DNA from: Bacilli bacterium
GTDB taxonomy: Bacteria; Bacillota_I; Bacilli_A; RF39; UBA660
Assembly (NCBI GenBank): GCA_022795155.1
Contig: JAAWGF010000001.1
Span: 74,826 to 138,825, forward strand
Length of the DNA stretch: 64,000 nucleotides
Reading direction: 5' to 3'
Below are positions 1 through 52,494 of the stretch, piece by piece. A program made the translations under genes and the position numbers. Positions within the stretch are counted from its first letter, which is position 1; every line of letters begins with the position of its first letter. The notes under the pieces are model-generated. The model did not search any database, was not told the origin of the DNA, and saw only the letters and a list, made by a program, of their open reading frames with translations.

Positions 1-2838
1 AGAACTAATGCTAAAGGTGAATATAATAGTGAAGTAATTGAGAACTTTGATGATATGATTTTGGCATCACTAATACTTGCTATTTACGATATTGAAAGTA
101 AAGTAACTACATTCTTTTGTAATTTAGGCATTAATGAAAGTAGGGTTCGCGCATTTTTAATTAGAGGGAAAACAGGTAGTCCTGGGTTACCACCTTCTGG
201 TGTGACAATTATTCGCCAATTTTTTGATAAATATATAAATAGTGGGTTTAATAAAGAAAAAGAAAGAAAAAATTTAACGATTGAAAATGTCATAACTAAT
301 ATTTTTGATCGTGATTTTACAAATAGCTTAGTTTTAGAAAAACTTCTTTATAAATATAAATTATCAATAACCGATTTTTCTGATTTTGAAAATAAATTAA
401 TAAACTTTGAAAAAAACTATGAGTTGTTACAAAGACAAAAAAAACTTGATGAATTTTATAATGATATTTCTAATGAAACAATTGAATTTATTGAATTTGT
501 TTCAAAAATTCATAAAATGCTCCAAAAATATTTTGATGATAATAAAATTAATAAAAAATATGTTAAAAATACTGATGATATTAGATTTTTGGCGTTCTTT
601 ATTAGTAGTTATTTTATTCCTAATGACTTTATTAGTTATTTTAAAGATAATGGTATTACAAAAGAAAAAATAATGGATAAGTTAGGTATAAATATTGATA
701 AAGAAGAAATTGATAAAATTGAATCTGATATTAATCTTATTGTAAATAACTATAAAGATATTATTTTTGGATATATAAGCTATAGAAAAGACATTAGCAT
801 TAATACCGTTTTATATGGGCTTGGAAACTTGGAAACAATAAACTCTAATTGTATATTAAAGCTTATTGAAGATATCAATCCTAATTTAAGATTAACTAAT
901 GATTTTACAAATTTTATTATTAATTATAATAAAAATCAAGAAGATCTTAGAAAATATCAATTAGAACAAAAATTTTTTGGTGATATGGATAAAGAGACTA
1001 TAAATTTTATAAATAGAGTTTCAAAAGTTTATCAAGCTTTAGAAAATTCAAATAAGACAACACAATTTAGTCGTGATGATTTAATTCAAATAGCTCTTTA
1101 TTCTACAGCCGTAAATTATAATAGTGAGGATTTGCACTTTAAATTTTTAAGTACTTTAACAACTAAAAATATATCTAATGTATTAGATATAAATAGTATT
1201 AATAGCCATGAAGAAAGTATTGATATTATTTATAATTATTTTGGCAAATATATTTTTGGTGGCAAAAATAAAGATAAAAAGAAACATGAAATAACAATTA
1301 ACGATATTTATACTAATCTATTTAATAAAGATATGAATGGTAGTTTAGCTTTATATAAATTGTTAGATGAAATCGATTTTTGTTATGATAAATTTAATAA
1401 TTTTGATGAGAGTTTTGCTGAGTATGAAAAAAATGAGTATATTAATGATGTTAAAGGCAATTTAAATTATGCAGGCTACGCTAATTACTTTTATAATGTC
1501 TCTAAAATATATGATTGTTTATTTAATATAGCTAAAGATGGAAAATTAATTTATGACGCTAATAAATATAGAGAATATATTAAAGATGCATCGCGACTTT
1601 TGGCTTTTTTATTAGAAACTAACAATGAACGATTTGATAAATATTTATCTTTGTTAAATAAGAGAGGAATAACGATTAATAATTATTTAAAATATATTGG
1701 TGTTAATTTAGAAGATTTTAATAATTATCAAAATAAGGAAATTAATTATTTAACGCTTTATGAAAATTTTAGCGAATATGAAGATTATGGAAGATGTTAT
1801 GATTGGAGTAAATCTTTAATTAATAATCTATTTAAAAAGAAGGATAATAAGTACCGTTATGAAAATTTTATCAAATATTTAAATGTGTCACCAGAAATTG
1901 TTGAGAAGGAAATGGAAAGTGGGGAGGAAGTTATTATTCCACTTTCTCAGGATGAACAATTAAATTATTTGGCGACGATGCCAGTTAGTAAATTGGATTA
2001 TAATTTAAATTCCATTTCCAAGTTTGGTCAAGAATTAGCTGATCATTCGATTATTATCGCTAATGAATTTGTTAATATTGCGATTCAAGATAATGATAAT
2101 AATCGTGTTTTAGACATTAAAGAAGAGATTAGTAAATTAATGAAAAAACCGAGTATCTTTTTAAGGAAAATGCCTGTTAGTGGAAAAATTGCTCATAATA
2201 AAAAAATTTTAGATAATTTAACTGAGATATTAAAAGAAAACGAAGCACGTATGATTGAAGTAATTGAGCATTTTACTTATTTAAAAAAATTGATAGCTAT
2301 TTATGTTTATCGGTTGAATAATTATATTGAAGAATTAAAATATAATTTAGAAAATTTTGAAAATAATCAAAATAATAAGGGACAAAGTATTTTTGAAGTT
2401 TTAGATAGTAATACTATAAAACAAACATTGAACGCTAAATTAGGTGATTATCAAACTTCATTAAATATTAGTCTTCAACAATATAATAAAATAAATTTAG
2501 TGCTTAATAATTATTTGTTAAATTTAAGTAAAACTTCGACAGCTAGAAATACAACTATTCCTAATTTATATATCGAATTATCAATTAGAGATAGTATTTT
2601 ATTAGAGCAAGATAGTATTTCTGACTTGAATGATATTAATAATTTACTTAGTAATATCGTTAAAGCTAATAATGAATTGCTAGATAAGAATACTTTTAAA
2701 GTTGGTAAGAATAATCGAAATGCTTTTGAAGAAAAAAGTTTAAGTGGATCAATTAGTGAAGTTTTAAAAGCGGAACATTTGTTAGAACAAAGCTATAATG
2801 ATGAAATAGATATTGCTAAACCTTATATTAAAAAATAA
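1..2838 (+). CDS. Large protein with tandem ~170-aa helical (Clp-N-like) repeats and a C-terminal TelA-like domain; 5' end lies outside the window
   Basis: Frame 1 is open from base 1 to ATG 55. Recurring motifs (DDxxxxA, xTI(E/N)xxxTNxF, VSK(I/V)xxxL) at about 170-aa spacing. C-terminal SISKFGQ...NTTIPNL...KANNELL resembles TelA. Confidence 0.55.
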   Translation, partial: RTNAKGEYNSEVIENFDDMILASLILAIYDIESKVTTFFCNLGINESRVRAFLIRGKTGSPGLPPSGVTIIRQFFDKYINSGFNKEKERKNLTIENVITNIFDRDFTNSLVLEKLLYKYKLSITDFSDFENKLINFEKNYELLQRQKKLDEFYNDISNETIEFIEFVSKIHKMLQKYFDDNKINKKYVKNTDDIRFLAFFISSYFIPNDFISYFKDNGITKEKIMDKLGINIDKEEIDKIESDINLIVNNYKDIIFGYISYRKDISINTVLYGLGNLETINSNCILKLIEDINPNLRLTNDFTNFIINYNKNQEDLRKYQLEQKFFGDMDKETINFINRVSKVYQALENSNKTTQFSRDDLIQIALYSTAVNYNSEDLHFKFLSTLTTKNISNVLDINSINSHEESIDIIYNYFGKYIFGGKNKDKKKHEITINDIYTNLFNKDMNGSLALYKLLDEIDFCYDKFNNFDESFAEYEKNEYINDVKGNLNYAGYANYFYNVSKIYDCLFNIAKDGKLIYDANKYREYIKDASRLLAFLLETNNERFDKYLSLLNKRGITINNYLKYIGVNLEDFNNYQNKEINYLTLYENFSEYEDYGRCYDWSKSLINNLFKKKDNKYRYENFIKYLNVSPEIVEKEMESGEEVIIPLSQDEQLNYLATMPVSKLDYNLNSISKFGQELADHSIIIANEFVNIAIQDNDNNRVLDIKEEISKLMKKPSIFLRKMPVSGKIAHNKKILDNLTEILKENEARMIEVIEHFTYLKKLIAIYVYRLNNYIEELKYNLENFENNQNNKGQSIFEVLDSNTIKQTLNAKLGDYQTSLNISLQQYNKINLVLNNYLLNLSKTSTARNTTIPNLYIELSIRDSILLEQDSISDLNDINNLLSNIVKANNELLDKNTFKVGKNNRNAFEEKSLSGSISEVLKAEHLLEQSYNDEIDIAKPYIKK

Positions 2839-2852
2839 TATTTAATAATAGT

Positions 2853-2884
2853 AATAATCCATAAGAATTTATGGGTTATTTTTA
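2853..2884 (+). terminator. Intrinsic terminator
   Basis: AATAATCCATAA-GAAT-TTATGGGTTATT followed by a T-run. Confidence 0.6.
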
Positions 2885-2976
2885 CTATAAAATATTTAAA
2901 TAATAAATTTATATGAAAAATAGTGTCTAAAATTTATTTTTATGATAAACTTATATAAGATACTAGGAGTGGTGTT

Positions 2977-3675
2977 ATGAAACCAAAAAAAATAAAAAAA
3001 ACAAAATCTAAGAAAAAGATAAAAATAAAGTATACTCGCGTATTTATTTTGTTGTTAGTTTTGCTATCTTTTATATTCGGCTTGGTTTTTATAATTAATT
3101 TAAAAATAACTAATATAGTTGTAATTGGTGATTATAATATTCTTAAAGAACAGGAAATTATTGACATTGCTTCTATTTCAAATTACCCTAAAACCTTAGC
3201 TTTTTCAAGTTCCAAGATTAAGAAAAATTTGGAGGATAATATATATATTAAGAGCGCAAAAGTTAAGAAAAAATATTTGACACAAGTATATATTATGGTT
3301 GAAGAAAATTATCCTTTATTTTTTTATAAAACTGATAATAAAACAATTTTATTAGATGGTTCTAAAGTTGATAAGGTATTTTCTGTACCAACGGTTATCA
3401 ATTATATTCCTAATCTTAAATATCAGAGTTTTGTTGAGAAAATGGGATTATTAGATAGTAATATTTTAGAGCGTATTTCAGAAATAAAATATGATCCTAG
3501 TGATTATGATGATGAAAGATTTTTATTATATATGAAAGATGGAAATTATGTTTATATTAATTTATATAAATTTAGTAATTTAAATAAGTATATTGAAATT
3601 GTTAAAAATTTTGGAAATAAAAGGGGAATTGTGTATTTAGATTCTGGAAATTATTTTGAAATTATAGAAAAATAG
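2977..3675 (+). CDS. divIB: Cell division protein DivIB/FtsQ
   Basis: Basic N-tail, one TM helix, POTRA-like segment; directly upstream of ftsA-ftsZ. Confidence 0.85.
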   Translation: MKPKKIKKTKSKKKIKIKYTRVFILLLVLLSFIFGLVFIINLKITNIVVIGDYNILKEQEIIDIASISNYPKTLAFSSSKIKKNLEDNIYIKSAKVKKKYLTQVYIMVEENYPLFFYKTDNKTILLDGSKVDKVFSVPTVINYIPNLKYQSFVEKMGLLDSNILERISEIKYDPSDYDDERFLLYMKDGNYVYINLYKFSNLNKYIEIVKNFGNKRGIVYLDSGNYFEIIEK

Positions 3676-3761
3676 TTCTTTTTAGAACTTTTTTAATTTT
3701 TTTCTTTTACTTTTTTTAAAATATATAGTATAATTGATTTTAGATTATAGGAGATGATATT

Positions 3762-5000
3762 GTGAAACATATTTACACTAGTGTTGATATTGGTTCTGAT
3801 ACAATCAAAATAGTCGTATGTGAATTGCTTAAGAACAAATTGAATTTACTAGCGGCATCTTCTGTTAAATCTAAAGGGATAAAAAAGGGTTTGATTACTA
3901 ACTTTGAAGAGGCACAATCTTCTTTACGGTTAGCCATATCTAAAATAGAGGATATGTTAGGAGCAAAAATAGCTCACGCAATCGTCTCTGTACCATCATA
4001 TTTTGCGGATTATTCTATGATTAAAGGTTCAATTAATGTTTTAACTGATGATCATATTATAGTTGGTAAAGATGTTGATAAGGTTATCGAGAGCGCTATT
4101 GCAAGTCATGAGTTATCAGGTAAATCAATTATTACAACAGTTCCAATTGACTTTTCTGTTGATAATGAGGAAAGAATATTAGATCCTAAGGGTTTAAATG
4201 GCGAGATATTATCTATGAGGGGGATTATGGTTACGACACCCAAAAAGAATTTATATTCTGTTTTAAATTTATTTGATAGTTTAGGAATAGAAGTTGATGA
4301 TGTTTCTATTAATGGCATTGGAGACTACTATTCCTTAAAAAATGACAATATGGATGCATTGGTTGGTTCAATTGTCAACGTTGGCTCTGAAACAACAACG
4401 ATATCTCTATTTAACAAGGGTGTTATTGTAAAAAGTTCTATTTTACAAAATGGAGGCAAAAATATAGATAATGATTTATCTTATATCTATAAAATACCTT
4501 TAGATGATGCTTGTGAAATGAAAGAAAAGTTTACTTTAGCTCATAAAAAAAATGCTAGTGTTAATGATGTTTGTATGGTTACGACTACTTCTGGAAAGAC
4601 AAGAAAGGTTAATCAGTATGAAGCCTCAGAGGTAGTCATGGCAAGACTAGAACAAATTTTAAATTCTGCTAAAAAGGAAATATCTGCTTTGACTAATCGG
4701 AAATTAGATTATATAATATTAACTGGTGGAACTAGTAATATGACACATTTTAATTATATAGTTGATGATGTGCTTGGAAAAAGTGCAACTGTTGGTAGTA
4801 TAAAGTTAATTGGAGTTAGAAATAATAAATATTCTTCTGCCATCGGCAATATTCTTTATTTTGTTAGCCGGCTAAGATTAAATGGAAGTAGTTATACAAT
4901 GTTTAAAAAAAATGAAATTGAAGAATTAGGTTCTAATCGTACTAGTAATTCAAATGACTCAATGTTAAGTAAGGTTTTTGGATACTTTTTTGGTGAATAA
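3762..5000 (+). CDS. ftsA: Cell division protein FtsA
   Basis: VDIGSDTIK actin-fold phosphate motif, LTGGTS; precedes ftsZ. Confidence 0.93.
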   Translation: MKHIYTSVDIGSDTIKIVVCELLKNKLNLLAASSVKSKGIKKGLITNFEEAQSSLRLAISKIEDMLGAKIAHAIVSVPSYFADYSMIKGSINVLTDDHIIVGKDVDKVIESAIASHELSGKSIITTVPIDFSVDNEERILDPKGLNGEILSMRGIMVTTPKKNLYSVLNLFDSLGIEVDDVSINGIGDYYSLKNDNMDALVGSIVNVGSETTTISLFNKGVIVKSSILQNGGKNIDNDLSYIYKIPLDDACEMKEKFTLAHKKNASVNDVCMVTTTSGKTRKVNQYEASEVVMARLEQILNSAKKEISALTNRKLDYIILTGGTSNMTHFNYIVDDVLGKSATVGSIKLIGVRNNKYSSAIGNILYFVSRLRLNGSSYTMFKKNEIEELGSNRTSNSNDSMLSKVFGYFFGE

Positions 5001-5012
5001 GGGAGGAAATTT

Positions 5013-6080
5013 ATGTTTGGGTTAGAAATAGATCAAATTGCCAAGATAAAAGTTATTGGTGTTGGCGGTGGTGGTGGAAATGCGGTTAACCGTATGATTG
5101 AATCAGGAATAAAAGGTGTTGATTTTATTGTTGCAAATACTGATTTGCAAGTTTTAAATGCATCTAAAGCACCACTTAAAATACAAATTGGCGCTGAACT
5201 AACTGGTGGAAGAGGAGCTGGCTCAAAACCTGATATTGGTAGAGAAGCTGCTTTAGAGTCAAGATCAGAGATTGAAGCTGCTTTAGAAGGTGCTGATATG
5301 GTTTTTGTTACTTGTGGTATGGGTGGCGGAACAGGAACAGGTGCTGCTCCTATCGTTGCTAGTATAGCTCAAGAATTAGGGGCTCTTACGGTTGGAATTG
5401 TTACAAAGCCTTTCTCTTTTGAAGGAAAGAAACGAATGGATCAAGCTATTGTTGGACTTGATGAATTAAAAAAACATGTTGATACATTAATTGTTATACC
5501 TAATGATCGTTTAAGAGAAATAATTGATAAGTCAACACCACTTTTAGCTTCTTTTAAAGAAGTTGACAATATTTTAATGCGTGGAGTTCAGTCTATTTCT
5601 GATTTGATTGCGGTTGCTGGTCTTATTAACCTTGATTTTGCTGATGTTAAATCAGTTATGGAGAAACGTGGTAATGCCCTAATTGGTATTGGTATAGGTG
5701 CTGGTGAAAATCGTGCCACTGAAGCCGCAAAGCAAGCTGTATCTAGCCCATTACTTGAAACTAGTATTAGTGGAGCGACTGACGCTATTATTAATGTAAC
5801 TGGTGGCGAGAATTTAACTTTATTTGAAGTTGAGGAGGCAGCTGAGGTAATTAGAACTTCGGCTAATACAGACATTAATACTATTTTTGGAGCTGTTATT
5901 AATGAAAATTTAAATGATGAAATTATTGTTACGGTAATCGCAACTGGCTTTGAAGATGCTGATAAGGCAAAGGTAGCAGCTACAGCTAAGAAAGAAACAG
6001 TAACAGCTAATATAGTTAGCGATGATGACGATGATGATGACAGTGATTTACCACCATTTTTAAGAAAAAGAGGATTTTAA
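5013..6080 (+). CDS. ftsZ: Cell division protein FtsZ
   Basis: GGGTGTG tubulin signature, NLDFAD T7 loop, C-terminal DLPPFLR peptide. Confidence 0.99.
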
Positions 6081-7630: not shown

Positions 7631-7698
7631 AAAATATATTTATCTATATTTTTTTTTATGATATAATTTTATCAATGATAAGGATAAGGGGAATCTAT

Positions 7699-9045
7699 AT
7701 GAAAAAAAAGGAACAAAAAACGGTTGATAATTTAGTTAAAGAAAATAATGAAGAATCAAAAGTTGAAAATTTGGATAATAATGTTGGAATTAAAGATTAT
7801 AAGTTTGTCATAATTTTATTAGTAGTTATTGCTGTGTTTGCTTTTTCAATGCCTTTAATTTTTAAAGGAATAAAAAAGTTAGAAGAAAGCAATTTTATTG
7901 ATAATTTATTTTCTAAAAATAATAGTGTTCCAGTTGATAATGTTGAGAATAAGACGCCTGGTAAGGCTGAAATCGTTAATGCGGATAAGAGTGGGGCTAA
8001 TGCGCCAGTATTAAAAGATGGTATGATACCTGTTAGGTATAATTATATTGAAAAAAAATGGGTAAAGGCTAATGCTGATAATCCTGACACAAATAGCTGG
8101 TATAATTATGCGAAAAAAGAGTGGGCTAATGCTATATTGGTTCGTGAAAACGGTACTAAAACACGTGAATTTTATGAGAATGCTAAACCTGATACTATGA
8201 TTAATGATGAAGATATTTTAGCTTTTTATGTTTGGATACCACGTTATAAATATTCGATTGTATCTAGTACAGGTCTTCAACAGATTGATATTTCTTTTGA
8301 AGAAAAGACAGCAACTAAAACAACAGGACCAAATTATATAACTCATCCGGCTTTTACGTTTGATGGAAATGAGCTTGCTGGTATATGGGTTGGAAAATTT
8401 GAGGTTACAGGAGATTTTAATAATTTGACTATTTTACCTAATCGAAATGCAGTAGTAAATCAAAGCATTTCTAATATGTTTAACGCAATAAAAGGATTTT
8501 ATGGTTCTTATTATGGTTTAAATAGTGAAACAACTAATTTACGTCTAATTAAAAATAGTGAATGGGGAGCTATCGTATATTTAACAAATTCTAAGTATGG
8601 TATTTGTCGAAATAAAGAATGTTCAGAAATGAGTACATATAATTTTGATTACAGTTCTGATGCTGGTGTCAATTCTAGTACAACTGGTAATGTAACTGGT
8701 GTTTATGCGATGAATGGTAGTGCAATGGAATATGTTATGGGTAATAATAATAGTGTTGTTGGTGAATCTGGTTTTGATAGTGTATGGATGTCAGAAAATA
8801 GAAAGTATTATGATAATTATACGAATGGTAGTGAAATCGAGTATACGCGTGGAATATCTGGTGATGCGACAGTAGAATTCGGCCCATTTAATAATGGACA
8901 AAGTAGTTGGAATAACAGTTTTTCTAAATTTGTTACTAATGATAATCCATGGTTTTTCCGTGATATAAATAATAGTATTTATTCATTTAGTAGTTATACA
9001 GGTGGGCCACATTATCAAGTGGGGTTTAGATTAAGTTTAAGTTAA
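7699..9045 (+). CDS. Membrane-anchored surface protein with FGE/C-type-lectin-like C-terminal domain
   Basis: One N-terminal TM; motifs WIPRYKY, THPAF, IWVGKFEV, NSEWGA, STTGNVTGVYAMNG and terminal GFRL. Confidence 0.5.
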   Translation: MKKKEQKTVDNLVKENNEESKVENLDNNVGIKDYKFVIILLVVIAVFAFSMPLIFKGIKKLEESNFIDNLFSKNNSVPVDNVENKTPGKAEIVNADKSGANAPVLKDGMIPVRYNYIEKKWVKANADNPDTNSWYNYAKKEWANAILVRENGTKTREFYENAKPDTMINDEDILAFYVWIPRYKYSIVSSTGLQQIDISFEEKTATKTTGPNYITHPAFTFDGNELAGIWVGKFEVTGDFNNLTILPNRNAVVNQSISNMFNAIKGFYGSYYGLNSETTNLRLIKNSEWGAIVYLTNSKYGICRNKECSEMSTYNFDYSSDAGVNSSTTGNVTGVYAMNGSAMEYVMGNNNSVVGESGFDSVWMSENRKYYDNYTNGSEIEYTRGISGDATVEFGPFNNGQSSWNNSFSKFVTNDNPWFFRDINNSIYSFSSYTGGPHYQVGFRLSLS

Positions 9046-11033: not shown

Positions 11034-12509
11034 ATGAAAAAAGTAGTAAGCATTATGGCAGTAATAGCGACCTTTTTTATGTTTGGTAATAAAAATGTAA
11101 ACGCGCTAGAGAAAACTTATTGGGAGAAATTTTTTGAGGAAAGGTATAGTGATGGCATCGATTATGGTGAAGGTGGTTGTAGTTCTTCAACTAATGGCTT
11201 ACATAATTGGGGAGATGTTAATCGCACATTTCATTTAGAGTATGGAGGATGTGGCGATGCAACGGTTTATCTTGAATTTCAACCAGTGTACTACACTGAT
11301 AATGTTATTTTTAATGATGTAGAAAATGTTACAGTTAAAAGTAGTGATGAGACTATTATAACTGGTGAAGTAAAAGCATATGATTTCAGTAAAGAAAAAG
11401 AAGCATTTAATAATTATATTAAATGGTATAATGAATTAACTTTTGATGAATTTAAAGAACATTTAATTAATGCAGGTCATGAAGATTGGGCAGCATCTTT
11501 TAAAGAAAAACCAATTTGGTGGCTATATAATGGATATGAAAGTGAACCAACTTGGTGGACAATGTATGGCTTTATGTCTGAACCTACAAAAGCAGTTGAA
11601 GTAATTACTTATGCTAAAGACTTAGGAAATGCTACTTTAACAGTAAGTGCTAAAGATAAGGAAGATATTCATATTAATTGGACAATGGATATAGAGTATA
11701 TAGAACCAGATGGTATTGTTCAAATTTTAAATAATCTTGAGCGCTACAAAGATATTATCAAAGAAAGAGAATATTATGTATCAGATAAAAAAGAAAACTA
11801 TACATTTATGGTAGCATCCGATAATAATCTATCTAGTTTAATTAATACTTTAAAAGGTAAAGATATTAAACTTTTATTTAATAACTATAGTGAAGTAGGA
11901 GAAACCAATTATATCTTAAATGGTAAAGATATTACTAATACTGTTAGTGAAGGTTTTACTTATGAAAGTAAAATATCAATGGAAACATCAATAAATAAGG
12001 ATAAAATTAATAGTTTAACTGAATTAAAAGACGCGATTTATATTGATTTTACTTATCATGGTAATCTTCCAACAACTTATAAATTAAATGTTAATATAGA
12101 AGATTATATTATTGGTTCATTTGTTGAACAATTAGGTTGTTCACAATATAATTGGGATACAGATCCTGAAAATTATACAAAATGTTGGAGTGATGTATGG
12201 AATAAAGCCCATGAATATTTTGAAAATACAACCTTTGACTTACTATATTACAATCCAGAAACTGAAAAAATGGAAGTTGTAACAAAAGGATTAAAAGCTA
12301 AAGATGGTTTTGTAGTATTAGAATTTGATCATTTCTCATCTTATGTCTTAGTAGCAAATGGCAATTATACAATTACTAATAAGCCAAAAGCCCCAAATAA
12401 TGCTCAAACATCGTCAATGAATGTTTATTTATATATTGGTGTAGCTTTAGTATCATTAGTTGGAATTAGTTATTTATTAATTAAAAAAAGTAAAAAGAAA
12501 ATAGCTTAA
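11034..12509 (+). CDS. Secreted cell-wall-anchored protein, likely sortase B substrate
   Basis: Signal peptide; C-terminal NAQTS, TM helix and KKSKKK tail; adjacent to a class B sortase. Confidence 0.7.
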   Translation: MKKVVSIMAVIATFFMFGNKNVNALEKTYWEKFFEERYSDGIDYGEGGCSSSTNGLHNWGDVNRTFHLEYGGCGDATVYLEFQPVYYTDNVIFNDVENVTVKSSDETIITGEVKAYDFSKEKEAFNNYIKWYNELTFDEFKEHLINAGHEDWAASFKEKPIWWLYNGYESEPTWWTMYGFMSEPTKAVEVITYAKDLGNATLTVSAKDKEDIHINWTMDIEYIEPDGIVQILNNLERYKDIIKEREYYVSDKKENYTFMVASDNNLSSLINTLKGKDIKLLFNNYSEVGETNYILNGKDITNTVSEGFTYESKISMETSINKDKINSLTELKDAIYIDFTYHGNLPTTYKLNVNIEDYIIGSFVEQLGCSQYNWDTDPENYTKCWSDVWNKAHEYFENTTFDLLYYNPETEKMEVVTKGLKAKDGFVVLEFDHFSSYVLVANGNYTITNKPKAPNNAQTSSMNVYLYIGVALVSLVGISYLLIKKSKKKIA

Positions 12510-36474: not shown

Positions 36475-36574
36475 TTAAATTAACAATTGAATAAATTGTT
36501 TTTTTTATTGAATTTTATAACGTTTACTTTTTTTACAATTTTTGTTATATTTAATGATAGATGGAAGTGGTATT

Positions 36575-38344
36575 ATGAAGAAGGTATGTAATTTTATTTG
36601 TAAGTATAAATATCAAGCTTTATTAGTACTCTTATATTTAGTATTATTTTATCAAATGCAAAATGTCTTTTTTTATGGTGATGATTATGAAATATTATAT
36701 CCATATCATAATTCACATGATTTTTTTAATGTTTTAAATTTTGTTATGAATAAAATGCATTATTTTTGGTATGAATGGTCTGGGAGAATTGCAGTTCATT
36801 TTACGGCTACTTTTGGTTCGTCAATGTTTGGAATTTCTTTTTTTAAATTTTTAAATCCTATAATGATTTTTACTTTTTGTTATTTGTTGACTAAAATATT
36901 TTCTTTGTTTAAAGATTGTAATTTTTATAAAGTTTTGACTGTTATATCATTATGTGTTATCGGTTTAAATATTAGTATTTCTCGAGATACTTTATATTGG
37001 CTATCATCAACTATACCATATATTTGGTTTTTTAATTTAACATTATTAACTATATATATAGTATATAAGAATTACTTGTTGGGTAATAATATATCTAAGG
37101 GGCATTTTTTAATTTTAGTTTTAATTTGTATTACGCAAACGTTTGCTTTAGAACAAATTACTTTTATTTTATTATCATTTTTTTCAGTTATGCTATTTTT
37201 TGCTGATAAAACTAAAATTAATCGTAAACAATTGTTTATATTGTTATGCTTAACAATTATTAGTTTTTTAATAGTATCGTTTTGTCCGGGAAATATTTCT
37301 AGGTCAGATGTTCAAAATACGGAATTAGTTGGTTTTTCTTATTTAGAAATTTTATTAGGAAAATGTTACAAGTTTCTTTGTTATATGTTAGATACTAATT
37401 GTTTAGGTAGTTATGTATTAGTATTGAGTATATTAGTTAAAAATGTTTATGATAATAGTTATAAACTAAATAAAACTAGTCTGTCATCAATTATTTTTTA
37501 TGTTTATTTTATAATTGTTCTATTTAATATATTTTTCCCTAATAGTAACACTTTTTTAAATTTTGCTGATTCAATTGATACATTAGAATTTGGTAGTTTA
37601 AATTATATGGCTATTATTTTTCAAATATTTATCTTTAGCTGTTTTTTGCTTAATTTAATATATATGATATTTAAAACCTTAAAAAAAGAAAAACGCTTTT
37701 TTCTAAATGCTTTTTTGATTTCGTTAATTTCTTCAATGATGCCAATTTTATGTGTTAGATTTGTTACTCTACGTTATTTTATTTATCCGTTAATAGTAGT
37801 AATTATTCTTAGTATTTTATACTATGAATCTAATTTTGAAAATAAGGACTTTAAAATAGAAAATATTATTTTACTTGGTATAAGTTTGGGATTTAAATGG
37901 GCAATTATAGTTTGTTTAATAGTAACATTAATACATGTTTTTGTATTTAAGAATGCTAGAATTAAGATATTTGGTTATTTAATTATGATGATTTTATTTT
38001 ATAATATAATAACAACTTTAGTTGGGTATTATAAAAATGGCATCATTTATCGAAAAAATATTGAATCATTTGTAAATGCAGTTGCTGATAAACCAATATT
38101 TTTGGAAGAGGTTCCTTATGAGAATCGATTGTATACATGGCATGCGATTGAACTTGATTATAATCATATAAGGCAATATTATGGCTTTTATTTAGAAGAT
38201 TTTTATGAAAATTATTATGGAATTAATGTCGAAAATGTTTATATTTATCATAATGTCAATTCTTGCCAAATTAATTATGTTTATTTAGGTAGATATGATT
38301 ATGACCAATTTTTAAAATATAATTATTCGGTCGAAAGTTGTTAA
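36575..38344 (+). CDS. Polytopic membrane protein, DUF6056/GT-C-like
   Basis: YGDDY in first loop, WSGR, YWLSST..Y.W, CPGN..R; about 12 TMs. Confidence 0.5.
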   Translation: MKKVCNFICKYKYQALLVLLYLVLFYQMQNVFFYGDDYEILYPYHNSHDFFNVLNFVMNKMHYFWYEWSGRIAVHFTATFGSSMFGISFFKFLNPIMIFTFCYLLTKIFSLFKDCNFYKVLTVISLCVIGLNISISRDTLYWLSSTIPYIWFFNLTLLTIYIVYKNYLLGNNISKGHFLILVLICITQTFALEQITFILLSFFSVMLFFADKTKINRKQLFILLCLTIISFLIVSFCPGNISRSDVQNTELVGFSYLEILLGKCYKFLCYMLDTNCLGSYVLVLSILVKNVYDNSYKLNKTSLSSIIFYVYFIIVLFNIFFPNSNTFLNFADSIDTLEFGSLNYMAIIFQIFIFSCFLLNLIYMIFKTLKKEKRFFLNAFLISLISSMMPILCVRFVTLRYFIYPLIVVIILSILYYESNFENKDFKIENIILLGISLGFKWAIIVCLIVTLIHVFVFKNARIKIFGYLIMMILFYNIITTLVGYYKNGIIYRKNIESFVNAVADKPIFLEEVPYENRLYTWHAIELDYNHIRQYYGFYLEDFYENYYGINVENVYIYHNVNSCQINYVYLGRYDYDQFLKYNYSVESC

Positions 38345-50670: not shown

Positions 50671-52494
50671 ATGCAAAAGAAAATTAATTTTAAAAAAATA
50701 GTTTTATGTTTAATATATATGATGACTATATTATTAACACTATTGTTTTTATATAAAACGAAATTATATGGTTATTTATATCAATTACCTAGTTTTAATA
50801 TTTCATTTATTATAATAATAACAAGTTTTGTAGTGTATATACTTAACAAAGATATTTTTAAATTTGTAAATAAGAAAAATGCTTTATTGTTTTTAATTCT
50901 TGCTTTTTTATTTTTATTTATGTTACCTATAAATGAACTGTATACTTTGTTTTTTAGAAATGGAAGTATTTTGGAATTATTATATTATATTTTATATATT
51001 TTGTTATTAGTAATATCTATTATTATTTGTTTGATAAAAGTTTTTGCATTTAAGTTATCTAACCAAGATAGTGATTTCAAAAAAATTATTAAGATAATAA
51101 ATGTAATTTTTATTATAGTACTAGCAATTTATCTTTTTTCTTCTACAACTGGTTATTATGATGAAGATTTTCCAACAATATGGGAACAAAATATAAATGG
51201 GATATCTAATATTCATACTTTTGCTTATACAATTTTAATTATTGTTTTAAAATATATTTTTAATAATCCATATTTTATAATTGTTGTGCAAGTATTATTG
51301 TGGTTGTTTGCTTTAAATTATTCATTAAGGATTTTAGTTAGGGAAACAAAAAGTAAAAAAGTTTTAATAATTTTTTCAATAATCCAACTATTACTTTTAG
51401 TTGGATTTAAACAGACTGTTTTTTTGTGGAAAGATTCTTTATTTTCAATAGCGCTTTATATAATAGTACTTTCAATTATTGATTGTCTTTCACTTAAAAG
51501 TATATTTAAAAATCATACTATTATTTTTACTATTTTTGGAATAATTGTGTCTAATTTTCGAGCCTTTGGTTGGTTATTGATTTTGTTATTCGCTATGATT
51601 TCATTATTAGTTTTTTATAAGAATAAATATTTTAGTAAAATAATTGTTTTTTGTGGAACAATTAGTGTTTTATCATATTTTATTTTAAATTTTATATGTT
51701 TATCTTTTTTTGATGGTGTCAAGATTTCAAAAAATACCCAATATACAGTTCCTATATACCAGATTGGCTATTTTATAAATAATGGTTATGATTTTAACAA
51801 TTCAGAAATAGCTTATTTTGAAACATTATATCCAATTGAAGTATGGAAAAATAATTTTGTATTAAATGATGGTGATGCCCTTGCTAGAGCATGGAGAATT
51901 CCTAATGATTATATAGATAATTTTTTAACTTTTAAATATCCAAAAACATTATTAATTAATATGCGATTATTCTTAAGTAAACCTATTGTGTATTTAAAAT
52001 CATTAACTGGCTTATCTAATGTTTTATGGAGAATATCTGATGATAATTATAAAGTTAATTTTAATAGGTTAGATAGTTCTAATAAATTTAAAGGCAATGA
52101 ATTTTTTGCAACATATTTAGTCCCCTTTATTGGTAAAGATGGTAGTAATTTTAGTTTTAAAGAAAATTACCTATTTACAAAAGTTATTAATAAAATTGAA
52201 AATATATTATTTTATAATAGTTTATTATTTAATATTAAAAGTAGAGGTGGCTTTGCTCTTTATATTTTAATAATTTCAGCTATATTATTTATATATAAAA
52301 GGGAAGAAAAATATGTTTTGGCCATAGTACCATTATTATTATGGTTAGGAATGCTATTTATTTCGATTCCGAGGAGTTTAACACGATATATCATTATTTT
52401 TATAATAAGTTTTCCAATTATTTTTTTATTAGCGTTATGTAAAGATAATAGAATTAATTTAGAAGGAAAATTGAAAGAAAAAAAGAAGGTGTGA
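50671..52494 (+). CDS. Polytopic membrane protein, DUF6020/GT-C-like
   Basis: YYDED in loop, HT.AYT, WKDSLFS, YTVPIYQIG, terminal RY; about 13 TMs. Confidence 0.5.
   Translation: MQKKINFKKIVLCLIYMMTILLTLLFLYKTKLYGYLYQLPSFNISFIIIITSFVVYILNKDIFKFVNKKNALLFLILAFLFLFMLPINELYTLFFRNGSILELLYYILYILLLVISIIICLIKVFAFKLSNQDSDFKKIIKIINVIFIIVLAIYLFSSTTGYYDEDFPTIWEQNINGISNIHTFAYTILIIVLKYIFNNPYFIIVVQVLLWLFALNYSLRILVRETKSKKVLIIFSIIQLLLLVGFKQTVFLWKDSLFSIALYIIVLSIIDCLSLKSIFKNHTIIFTIFGIIVSNFRAFGWLLILLFAMISLLVFYKNKYFSKIIVFCGTISVLSYFILNFICLSFFDGVKISKNTQYTVPIYQIGYFINNGYDFNNSEIAYFETLYPIEVWKNNFVLNDGDALARAWRIPNDYIDNFLTFKYPKTLLINMRLFLSKPIVYLKSLTGLSNVLWRISDDNYKVNFNRLDSSNKFKGNEFFATYLVPFIGKDGSNFSFKENYLFTKVINKIENILFYNSLLFNIKSRGGFALYILIISAILFIYKREEKYVLAIVPLLLWLGMLFISIPRSLTRYIIIFIISFPIIFLLALCKDNRINLEGKLKEKKKV

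Follow-up and report, generated by a model that had tools for sequence, protein, structure and literature searches.

A conserved protein family of low-GC gut Bacilli that joins five tandem Clp-N-like repeats to a TelA-like C-terminal domain

Introduction

We followed up a gene at the start of a 64,000-nucleotide stretch of DNA from a Bacilli bacterium (assembly GCA_022795155.1, contig JAAWGF010000001.1, positions 74,826 to 138,825), which we refer to throughout as the window. The product of this gene, 1,148 residues long, is soluble, acidic and all-helical; in it, five tandem units of about 170 residues are followed by a TelA-like domain of about 290 residues. This protein represents an undescribed conserved family in low-GC gut Bacilli, in which two already known domain types are combined into a new architecture. 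A first-pass annotation of the window, made from its letters alone, had described the gene product as a giant protein with tandem Clp-N-like repeats fused to a TelA-like domain, and we examined each part of that description by profile searches, structure prediction and comparison of gene neighborhoods. The explanation of the whole protein that we favor, to which we assign a probability of roughly 0.5, is that it acts as a TelA-type membrane-proximal scaffold displaying multivalent Clp-N-like docking modules.

Results

The window holds most of a 1,148-residue protein with five repeat units

On the forward strand, the reading frame spanning 1 to 2838 is open at base 1 and encodes 945 residues up to a stop codon at 2836-2838; as the first-pass annotation had noticed, this open reading frame (ORF) leaves the window at its 5' end. 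We therefore read the upstream part of the gene (203 codons) and its flank from three 99%-identical contigs (L001-L003), which serve here as stand-ins for the window's own assembly. The gene is complete on these contigs, and its full-length product (P0001; 1,148 residues, 99% identical) differs from the window protein at 8 of 945 residues. Given the length of P0001, the part missing from the window amounts to just 203 residues, and residue n of the window protein is residue n+203 of the full-length protein. A database search returned 13 close homologues with lengths of 1,135 to 1,161 residues, so the protein is large, and the description of it as giant did not hold. The features within the gene are as follows:

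1-2838, forward strand: coding sequence, truncated at its 5' end by the window edge; the last 945 codons and the stop of the 1,148-residue protein
1-453, forward strand: repeat unit R2 (full-length residues 181-354); hhalign R2-R3 E 7.7e-11 and R2-R4 E 2.2e-15; match to the repeat hidden Markov model (HMM) at 181-352 in P0001
454-972, forward strand: repeat unit R3 (full-length residues 355-527), modeled singly with AlphaFold2
973-1458, forward strand: repeat unit R4 (full-length residues 528-689), from hhalign
1054-1185, forward strand: first half of R4 (FSRDDLIQIALYS...LTTKNISNVL), homologous to a segment of the family member P0033 that scores above the Pfam Clp_N cut-off
1459-1971, forward strand: repeat unit R5 (full-length residues 690-860), with a more diverged second half; repeat-HMM match at 697-837
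1972-2835, forward strand: TelA-like C-terminal domain (full-length residues 861-1148), beginning with the SISKFGQEL motif; from Pfam, AlphaFold2, Foldseek and hhalign

To define the repeats, we cut an alignment of 12 homologues (A1) into segments of about 170 residues and compared these by hhalign. R2, R3 and R4 proved mutually homologous, with E values of 1e-10 to 2e-15 over 139 to 165 columns, and a deeper repeat profile, built from 129 units of 43 diverse homologues, matched R5 (E 2.1e-23 over 141 columns) as well as a divergent unit, R1, at full-length residues 5-180, upstream of the window start (E 5e-10). The matches to R1 and R5 bring the number of units in the full protein to five. 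The window itself contains about 3.9 of them, namely R2 minus its first 23 residues and then R3, R4 and R5, which agrees with the earlier count of at least 3.5 copies of a unit of about 170 residues (profile-profile E 1e-10 to 1e-23). The motifs on which that count was based are also present, at residues 74/247/413 and 149/322/482 when counted from the methionine at nucleotide 55; in the same count, SISKFGQ falls at 653 and KANNELL at 870. The repeats are matched by no Pfam or NCBIfam model, NCBIfam gave no match anywhere in the window protein, and Pfam found no AAA+ domain in it.

Two other possibilities for the ORF could be rejected. It does not encode a membrane protein, since the maximum Kyte-Doolittle score over 19 residues is 1.3 and there is no hydrophobic segment, and it is not a pseudogene or a spurious ORF, since it is conserved over its full length down to about 20% identity across more than 100 clusters.

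The family is conserved and unnamed

Searched with a profile, 1.84 billion representative proteins yielded 189 clusters, defined at 50% identity, at E<=1e-3, and 111 of these at E<=1e-30. Most clusters are full-length, at 1,120 to 1,230 residues, and they are annotated throughout as 'hypothetical protein', with no other name. The related genome records are labeled as uncultured Tenericutes, Bacilli or Bacillales, the G+C content of all the loci that we read is 21 to 33%, and the window sequence is present in mouse-gut metagenomes. Literature searches turned up neither this family nor a Clp-N/TelA fusion. One member, P0100 (L014:6001-10890; 1,629 residues), carries an extra N-terminal extension of about 340 residues, and its gene lies directly after spoIVA.

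The C-terminal domain is TelA-like

The first-pass annotation had placed a TelA-type helical bundle near the C terminus, and this call was supported; we regard the assignment of the C-terminal domain as TelA-like as very secure. The Pfam TelA profile (PF05816) matched residues 736-907 of the window protein with an E value of 1.2e-4 and a score of 21.7 bits (profile positions 98-279 of 332), below the gathering cut-off of 30 bits. Other carriers of the C-terminal module align to the profile in the same register, with 30.5 bits (positions 6-277 of 332), above the cut-off, for P0071 and with 26.2 and 21.7 bits for P0069 and P0097, respectively. Among 43 diverse full-length members of the family, two match Pfam TelA at E<=0.01. 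By the Pfam threshold, the window protein is thus a relative of TelA and not a member.

The structural comparison points the same way. We modeled the full-length protein with AlphaFold2 from a 43-sequence alignment (A3), with a mean predicted local distance difference test score (pLDDT) of 79.8, and found that the repeats are followed by a long hairpin of two helices, at 929-993 and 1000-1076. The last 75 or so residues of the domain were modeled with low confidence and are probably disordered. When the model was searched with Foldseek against BFVD, a library of predicted viral structures, the first-ranked match was unnamed, and phage proteins named 'Tellurite resistance', 'Toxic anion resistance' or 'TelA-like' took ranks 2, 3, 6, 7 and 10, with E values of 1.9e-4 to 4e-2, a probability of 1.0, target-normalized template modeling (TM) scores of 0.37 to 0.51 and 295 to 334 aligned columns. 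The domain is therefore all-alpha, contains a long helical hairpin and can be superposed on TelA models. The PDB was less informative: the full-length model matched generic coiled-coil hairpins alone (HlyD, Vipp1/PspA, YscO and alpha-pore-forming toxins) at E>0.1, which we did not interpret, and no solved TelA structure was among the PDB matches from Foldseek or from a sequence-profile search with the C-terminal domain, which gave nothing.

We also compared the domain with bona fide TelA proteins by profile-profile alignment, using a TelA profile of 20 sequences, all with PF05816, that was built from the real TelA encoded next to a family gene in locus L013 and its relatives. Positions 5-263 of the C-terminal domain aligned with positions 21-302 of this profile at E 7.8e-4 over 248 collinear columns, and the alignment includes the N-terminal D..I..(F/Y)G motif, which in the window protein is SISKFGQEL. 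Repeat segments compared with the same TelA profile as controls gave E values of 0.03 to 0.9. A single TelA sequence matched the C-terminal domain profile at E 0.029, and a narrow TelA HMM, made from the 20 close sequences and run in HMM-to-sequence mode, did not detect the family.

Taken as a whole, the C-terminal 290 or so residues share with the TelA/KlaB/YaaN/YceH family (PF05816) the TelA fold and the D..I..FG motif, and they align with it collinearly over 248 columns. They differ in that TelA proteins are stand-alone proteins of about 330 to 400 residues, whereas in our case the module forms the tail of a protein of 1,148 residues, and in that the family gene has no XpaC, TerC/TerD or klaA/telB neighbor in the flanks that we read.

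The same module also occurs in eight proteins of 460 to 600 residues (P0144, P0154, P0156, P0069, P0091, P0097, P0103 and P0110). In some of the shorter carriers it follows BspA-type leucine-rich repeats (LRR_5), and in others it follows an unassigned N-terminal domain with the motif 'VEPIKWxVD...LIS..iLF'; the TelA-like module appears to be mobile. These fusions resemble our protein in that the same C-terminal module, which matches the family profile at E 1e-12 to 1e-64, stands behind a different putative binding domain, although they lack the Clp-N-like repeats and are much shorter. The fusion of the module to LRR_5 or to another N-terminal domain therefore fits a design of an anchor plus a binding module.

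The repeats are probably very diverged Clp-N-type domains

The identity of the repeats was less straightforward. The first-pass annotation had assigned them to the Clp-N type; the fold ranking, one family member above the Pfam cut-off and controlled HMM and half-repeat comparisons speak for this assignment, while the window protein has no Pfam Clp_N match and its fold matches are not significant. Weighing these results, we think that the unit of about 170 residues is probably a very diverged Clp-N-type domain. Because the window's own sequence fails the defining tests, however, we term its repeats Clp-N-like and not Clp_N.

We modeled R3 (window 454-972) with AlphaFold2 from a 15-unit alignment (A2) and obtained a confident model (pLDDT 90.4; predicted TM score 0.86) with eight main helices, whose lengths and order are Clp-N-like and the last of which is a connector of about 20 residues. 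Each unit is thus most likely an eight-helix bundle of two related halves, a 'double Clp repeat' such as ClpA, ClpB and ClpC have at their N termini, to which a long connecting helix has been added. A Foldseek search of the PDB with this model returned the ClpC1 N-domain (3wdc_A, 3wdb and 8ibp_A) and ClpC2 (8b9o) at ranks 1 to 4 and ClpA (1k6k) at rank 9, with E values of 1.9 to 5.7 and TM scores of 0.30 to 0.44, none of which is significant (best match, 3wdc_A: E 1.9, TM 0.38/0.44).

Several sequence comparisons agree with this ranking. Residues 556-598 of the family member P0033 score 22.1 bits (E 1.7e-4; profile positions 5-48 of 53) on Pfam Clp_N (PF02861), above the gathering cut-off of 20.7 bits, and this segment maps through alignment A3 to residues 352-395 of the window protein, in the first half of R4; at the equivalent site, P0092 scores 13.8 bits. 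We then searched 170 family proteins with a Clp-N HMM of 188 domains, which comprised the E. coli ClpA and ClpB N-domains, two ClpC N-domains and 120 database Clp_N proteins. The top score was 20.6 bits and six proteins scored at least 9 bits, whereas reversed sequences reached a maximum of 3.9 bits and ten local shuffles gave a single score of at least 9 bits in total, so that the signal exceeds a composition-matched null. Nine of the 13 domains of at least 4 bits place the core of Clp helices 2 to 4 (HMM positions 22-63) on unit positions of about 30 to 70 or, in the second half, of about 100 to 160.

The same core emerged when the two halves of the repeat unit were compared separately, as profiles of 215 units, with the two Clp halves. 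All four comparisons gave low P values (5e-4, 2.7e-3, 1.5e-3 and 4.8e-3), whereas the C-terminal domain and TelA, used as controls, gave P values of 0.66 and 0.45. R4 alone matched the Clp-N profile at E 0.005 to 0.008. An enlarged Clp-N alignment made with MAFFT was poor (229 columns; number of effective sequences, Neff, of 2) and brought no gain in the comparison, and we replaced it with an HMM-derived domain alignment.

These signals have to be set against a number of results that weigh on the other side, some of which could instead suggest that, behind a TelA-like C-terminal domain, the repeats form a new all-alpha fold unrelated to Clp-N, in which the 'LLxALL...GI' likeness reflects convergence of short amphipathic helices in an AT-rich proteome rich in Ile, Leu and Asn. 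Pfam Clp_N gave no match at E<=10 in the window protein or its repeats, and only 1 of the 43 diverse members matches it at E<=0.01. No Clp protein came up either when the repeat alignment was used for a sequence-profile search of the PDB. The solved Clp N-domains were matched neither with a TM score of at least 0.5 nor with a significant Foldseek E value, and the comparison of the whole unit with the Clp-N profile reached only E 0.01 to 0.04. In addition, the two halves of the unit show a weak likeness to each other (P 0.0065 to 0.019), while true Clp halves give 4e-27, and the repeats have DD or I-T-I in place of the TEH-type motif of Clp N-domains. Nevertheless, we consider a new fold unlikely, since independent weak signals (the fold ranking, P0033, the HMM scores over their controls and four of four half comparisons at P<=5e-3) agree on both the family and the register, and since the number and order of the helices match Clp-N. 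The PDB profile search also listed a designed repeat protein and S100-A9 (E>=7e-5 and 0.1, respectively), which we judged to be noise.

Compared with known Clp N-domains (PF02861; ClpA, ClpB and ClpC, and the stand-alone ClpC2 and ClpT), the repeats share eight helices, which probably form two related four-helix halves, each half having a buried 'hLLxxLL' helix that is followed by a 'G-I/V' turn helix. In contrast to those domains, they are not joined to an AAA+ module, they occur as five tandem copies that each have an extra connecting helix of about 20 residues, their TM scores stay below 0.5, and the window protein misses every Pfam threshold. Since they do not conserve the TEH motif, it would be unsafe to presume that they bind ligands as Clp N-domains do.

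Gene neighborhoods differ among clades

The family gene, denoted X in descriptions of loci, lies within the order murG-murB-X-divIB-ftsA-ftsZ in the window, in L001 and L002, and in the relatives L004-L006, whose identity goes down to 36%. Downstream of X, the window contains the following features:

2839-2976, forward strand: 138-base-pair (bp) spacer to divIB, with no terminator-like hairpin
2977-6080, forward strand: divIB/ftsQ (POTRA), ftsA and ftsZ, then spoIIGA and sigE

The organism therefore has sporulation genes, spoIIGA and sigE, after ftsZ. Since the spacer contains no terminator-like hairpin, X is likely co-transcribed with divIB-ftsA-ftsZ, as far as the sequence of the locus allows us to predict.

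A second arrangement is found in three distant relatives, in which a canonical telA (384 to 402 residues) ends 5 to 42 bp upstream of X; the telA genes lie at L013:4828-5982, L015:233-1399 and L012:4751-5959. The one in L012 has no precomputed Pfam match and scores 177 bits on the TelA HMM. From this spacing, telA and X look like an operon in L012, L013 and L015.

Elsewhere, X follows tig, with ftsW/rodA nearby (L007), adjoins spoIVA (L014) or lies in unrelated neighborhoods (L010 and L011). The first-pass annotation had suggested looking for an XpaC-like partner upstream, and there was none in the flanks that we read; no XpaC, Ter or Clp gene is adjacent to X in any locus read, and no clp gene, mecA or mcsB stands beside X in 10 loci.

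Several genes without a Pfam match lie near X or elsewhere in the window. Upstream of murG, three consecutive minus-strand genes (L001:3189-5783; 275, 311 and 198 residues) are flanked by murG and a VCA0040-like gene; L002 and L004 retain them, and the equivalent region falls just before the window. Within the window, four forward-strand ORFs have no Pfam match at E<=1e-3: 7675-9045 (456 residues; between sigE and mutL), 11034-12509 (491 residues; between mutL and a sortase gene), 36542-38344 (600 residues) and 50671-52494 (607 residues).

Discussion

A proposed scaffold with docking modules, and its alternatives

We propose that the TelA-like tail may oligomerize under the cytoplasmic membrane, as has been proposed for TelA proteins, with itself as the partner or, in lineages that carry a canonical telA immediately before X, with TelA. 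The protein's five Clp-N-like modules would then extend into the cytoplasm, where peptides or partner proteins could dock on them as on a multivalent array. These clients may be envelope-synthesis or division proteins, a suggestion that comes from the position of X, in this clade, in the division and cell wall (dcw) cluster, between murB and divIB-ftsA-ftsZ, with which it is probably co-transcribed. A role of the tail in assembly, on the cytoplasmic side of the membrane, is suggested by its combination with variable binding modules, by its pairing with telA, by the lack of a membrane segment, and by the view of TelA as forming sub-membrane structures (PMC7824862). TelA/XpaC have also been linked to daptomycin resistance (PMC6811118).

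Several observations count against this explanation, beyond those concerning the repeats. Membrane association of TelA-type domains is itself only inferred in the literature. The gene context is not conserved across the family, with L007, L010, L011 and L014 all differing, and the link to cell division may therefore be specific to one clade or accidental. Sequencing runs did not help either: the RNA-labeled run X26 gave 20-nucleotide chance matches alone, and X25, a faecal library labeled 'GENOMIC FL-cDNA', gave four low-depth contigs (259 to 483 nucleotides; 98 to 100% identity; window 1155-2962) for which RNA and DNA origins are indistinguishable, so that both runs are uninformative on transcription.

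It is also possible that the protein does not present docking modules at all, and instead serves as a structural scaffold of the division or sporulation septum, in a role like that of helical-repeat proteins such as EzrA, with the repeats as spacers and the TelA-like hairpin as a coiled-coil assembly element that has no role in stress resistance. The location of X in one clade, where it follows murB and leads into divIB-ftsA-ftsZ without an intervening terminator, would be expected of such a protein, as would the ftsW/rodA/spoVE-family genes near X in L007 and L013 and the adjacent spoIVA in L014, and the PDB matches to the C-terminal part are generic long hairpins. On the other hand, the context is not conserved in L010, L011 and L012, the canonical telA next to X in three loci points to TelA biology and not to the divisome, and the fold matches in the viral library are specifically TelA proteins and not generic coiled coils; we therefore consider a purely structural role distinctly improbable. 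More doubtful still is the functional idea of the first-pass annotation, a decoy or adaptor sink of the ClpC type, in which the modules would compete with the N-domains of ClpC or ClpE for adaptors (MecA, McsB), for phospho-arginine tags or for compounds that target the N-domain, as mycobacterial ClpC2 does, and would thereby modulate proteolysis at the membrane. The protein probably does contain Clp-N-like modules, ClpC2, itself a stand-alone Clp-N-like protein (8b9o), is among their top fold matches, and X follows tig in L007, a slot that is often occupied by clpP/clpX in Firmicutes. However, the divergence of the repeats from functional Clp N-domains is extreme, they lack the TEH motif, and the 10 loci mentioned above hold no clp, mecA or mcsB gene beside X, which together make this a long shot.

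The scaffold with docking modules that we favor could be extended into a more specific proposal, for which we see only a slim chance: that the protein couples a TelA-type sub-membrane assembly for envelope stress to Clp-style client recognition. At the membrane, beside the divisome, its five degenerate Clp-N modules would catch envelope and division proteins that are tagged or unfolded, or else Clp adaptors. If the coupling were true, wall-bearing low-GC gut Bacilli would have in this protein a non-ATPase 'holding platform' through which protein quality control is tied to damage of the envelope.

What the family may say about TelA

TelA proteins are widespread and have been linked repeatedly to tolerance of tellurite, lantibiotics and daptomycin, yet we know of no mechanism for them. 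By joining a TelA-like module to five probable peptide-docking domains, this family offers a 'Rosetta-stone' hint that TelA modules may be anchors or scaffolds for binding domains, and the fusion of the TelA-like module to leucine-rich repeats supports that hint likewise. The family would also broaden the range of Clp-N-type domains by a very diverged, tandem form outside the AAA+ proteins. What is gained is not a new kind of system; it is a testable hypothesis on TelA function.

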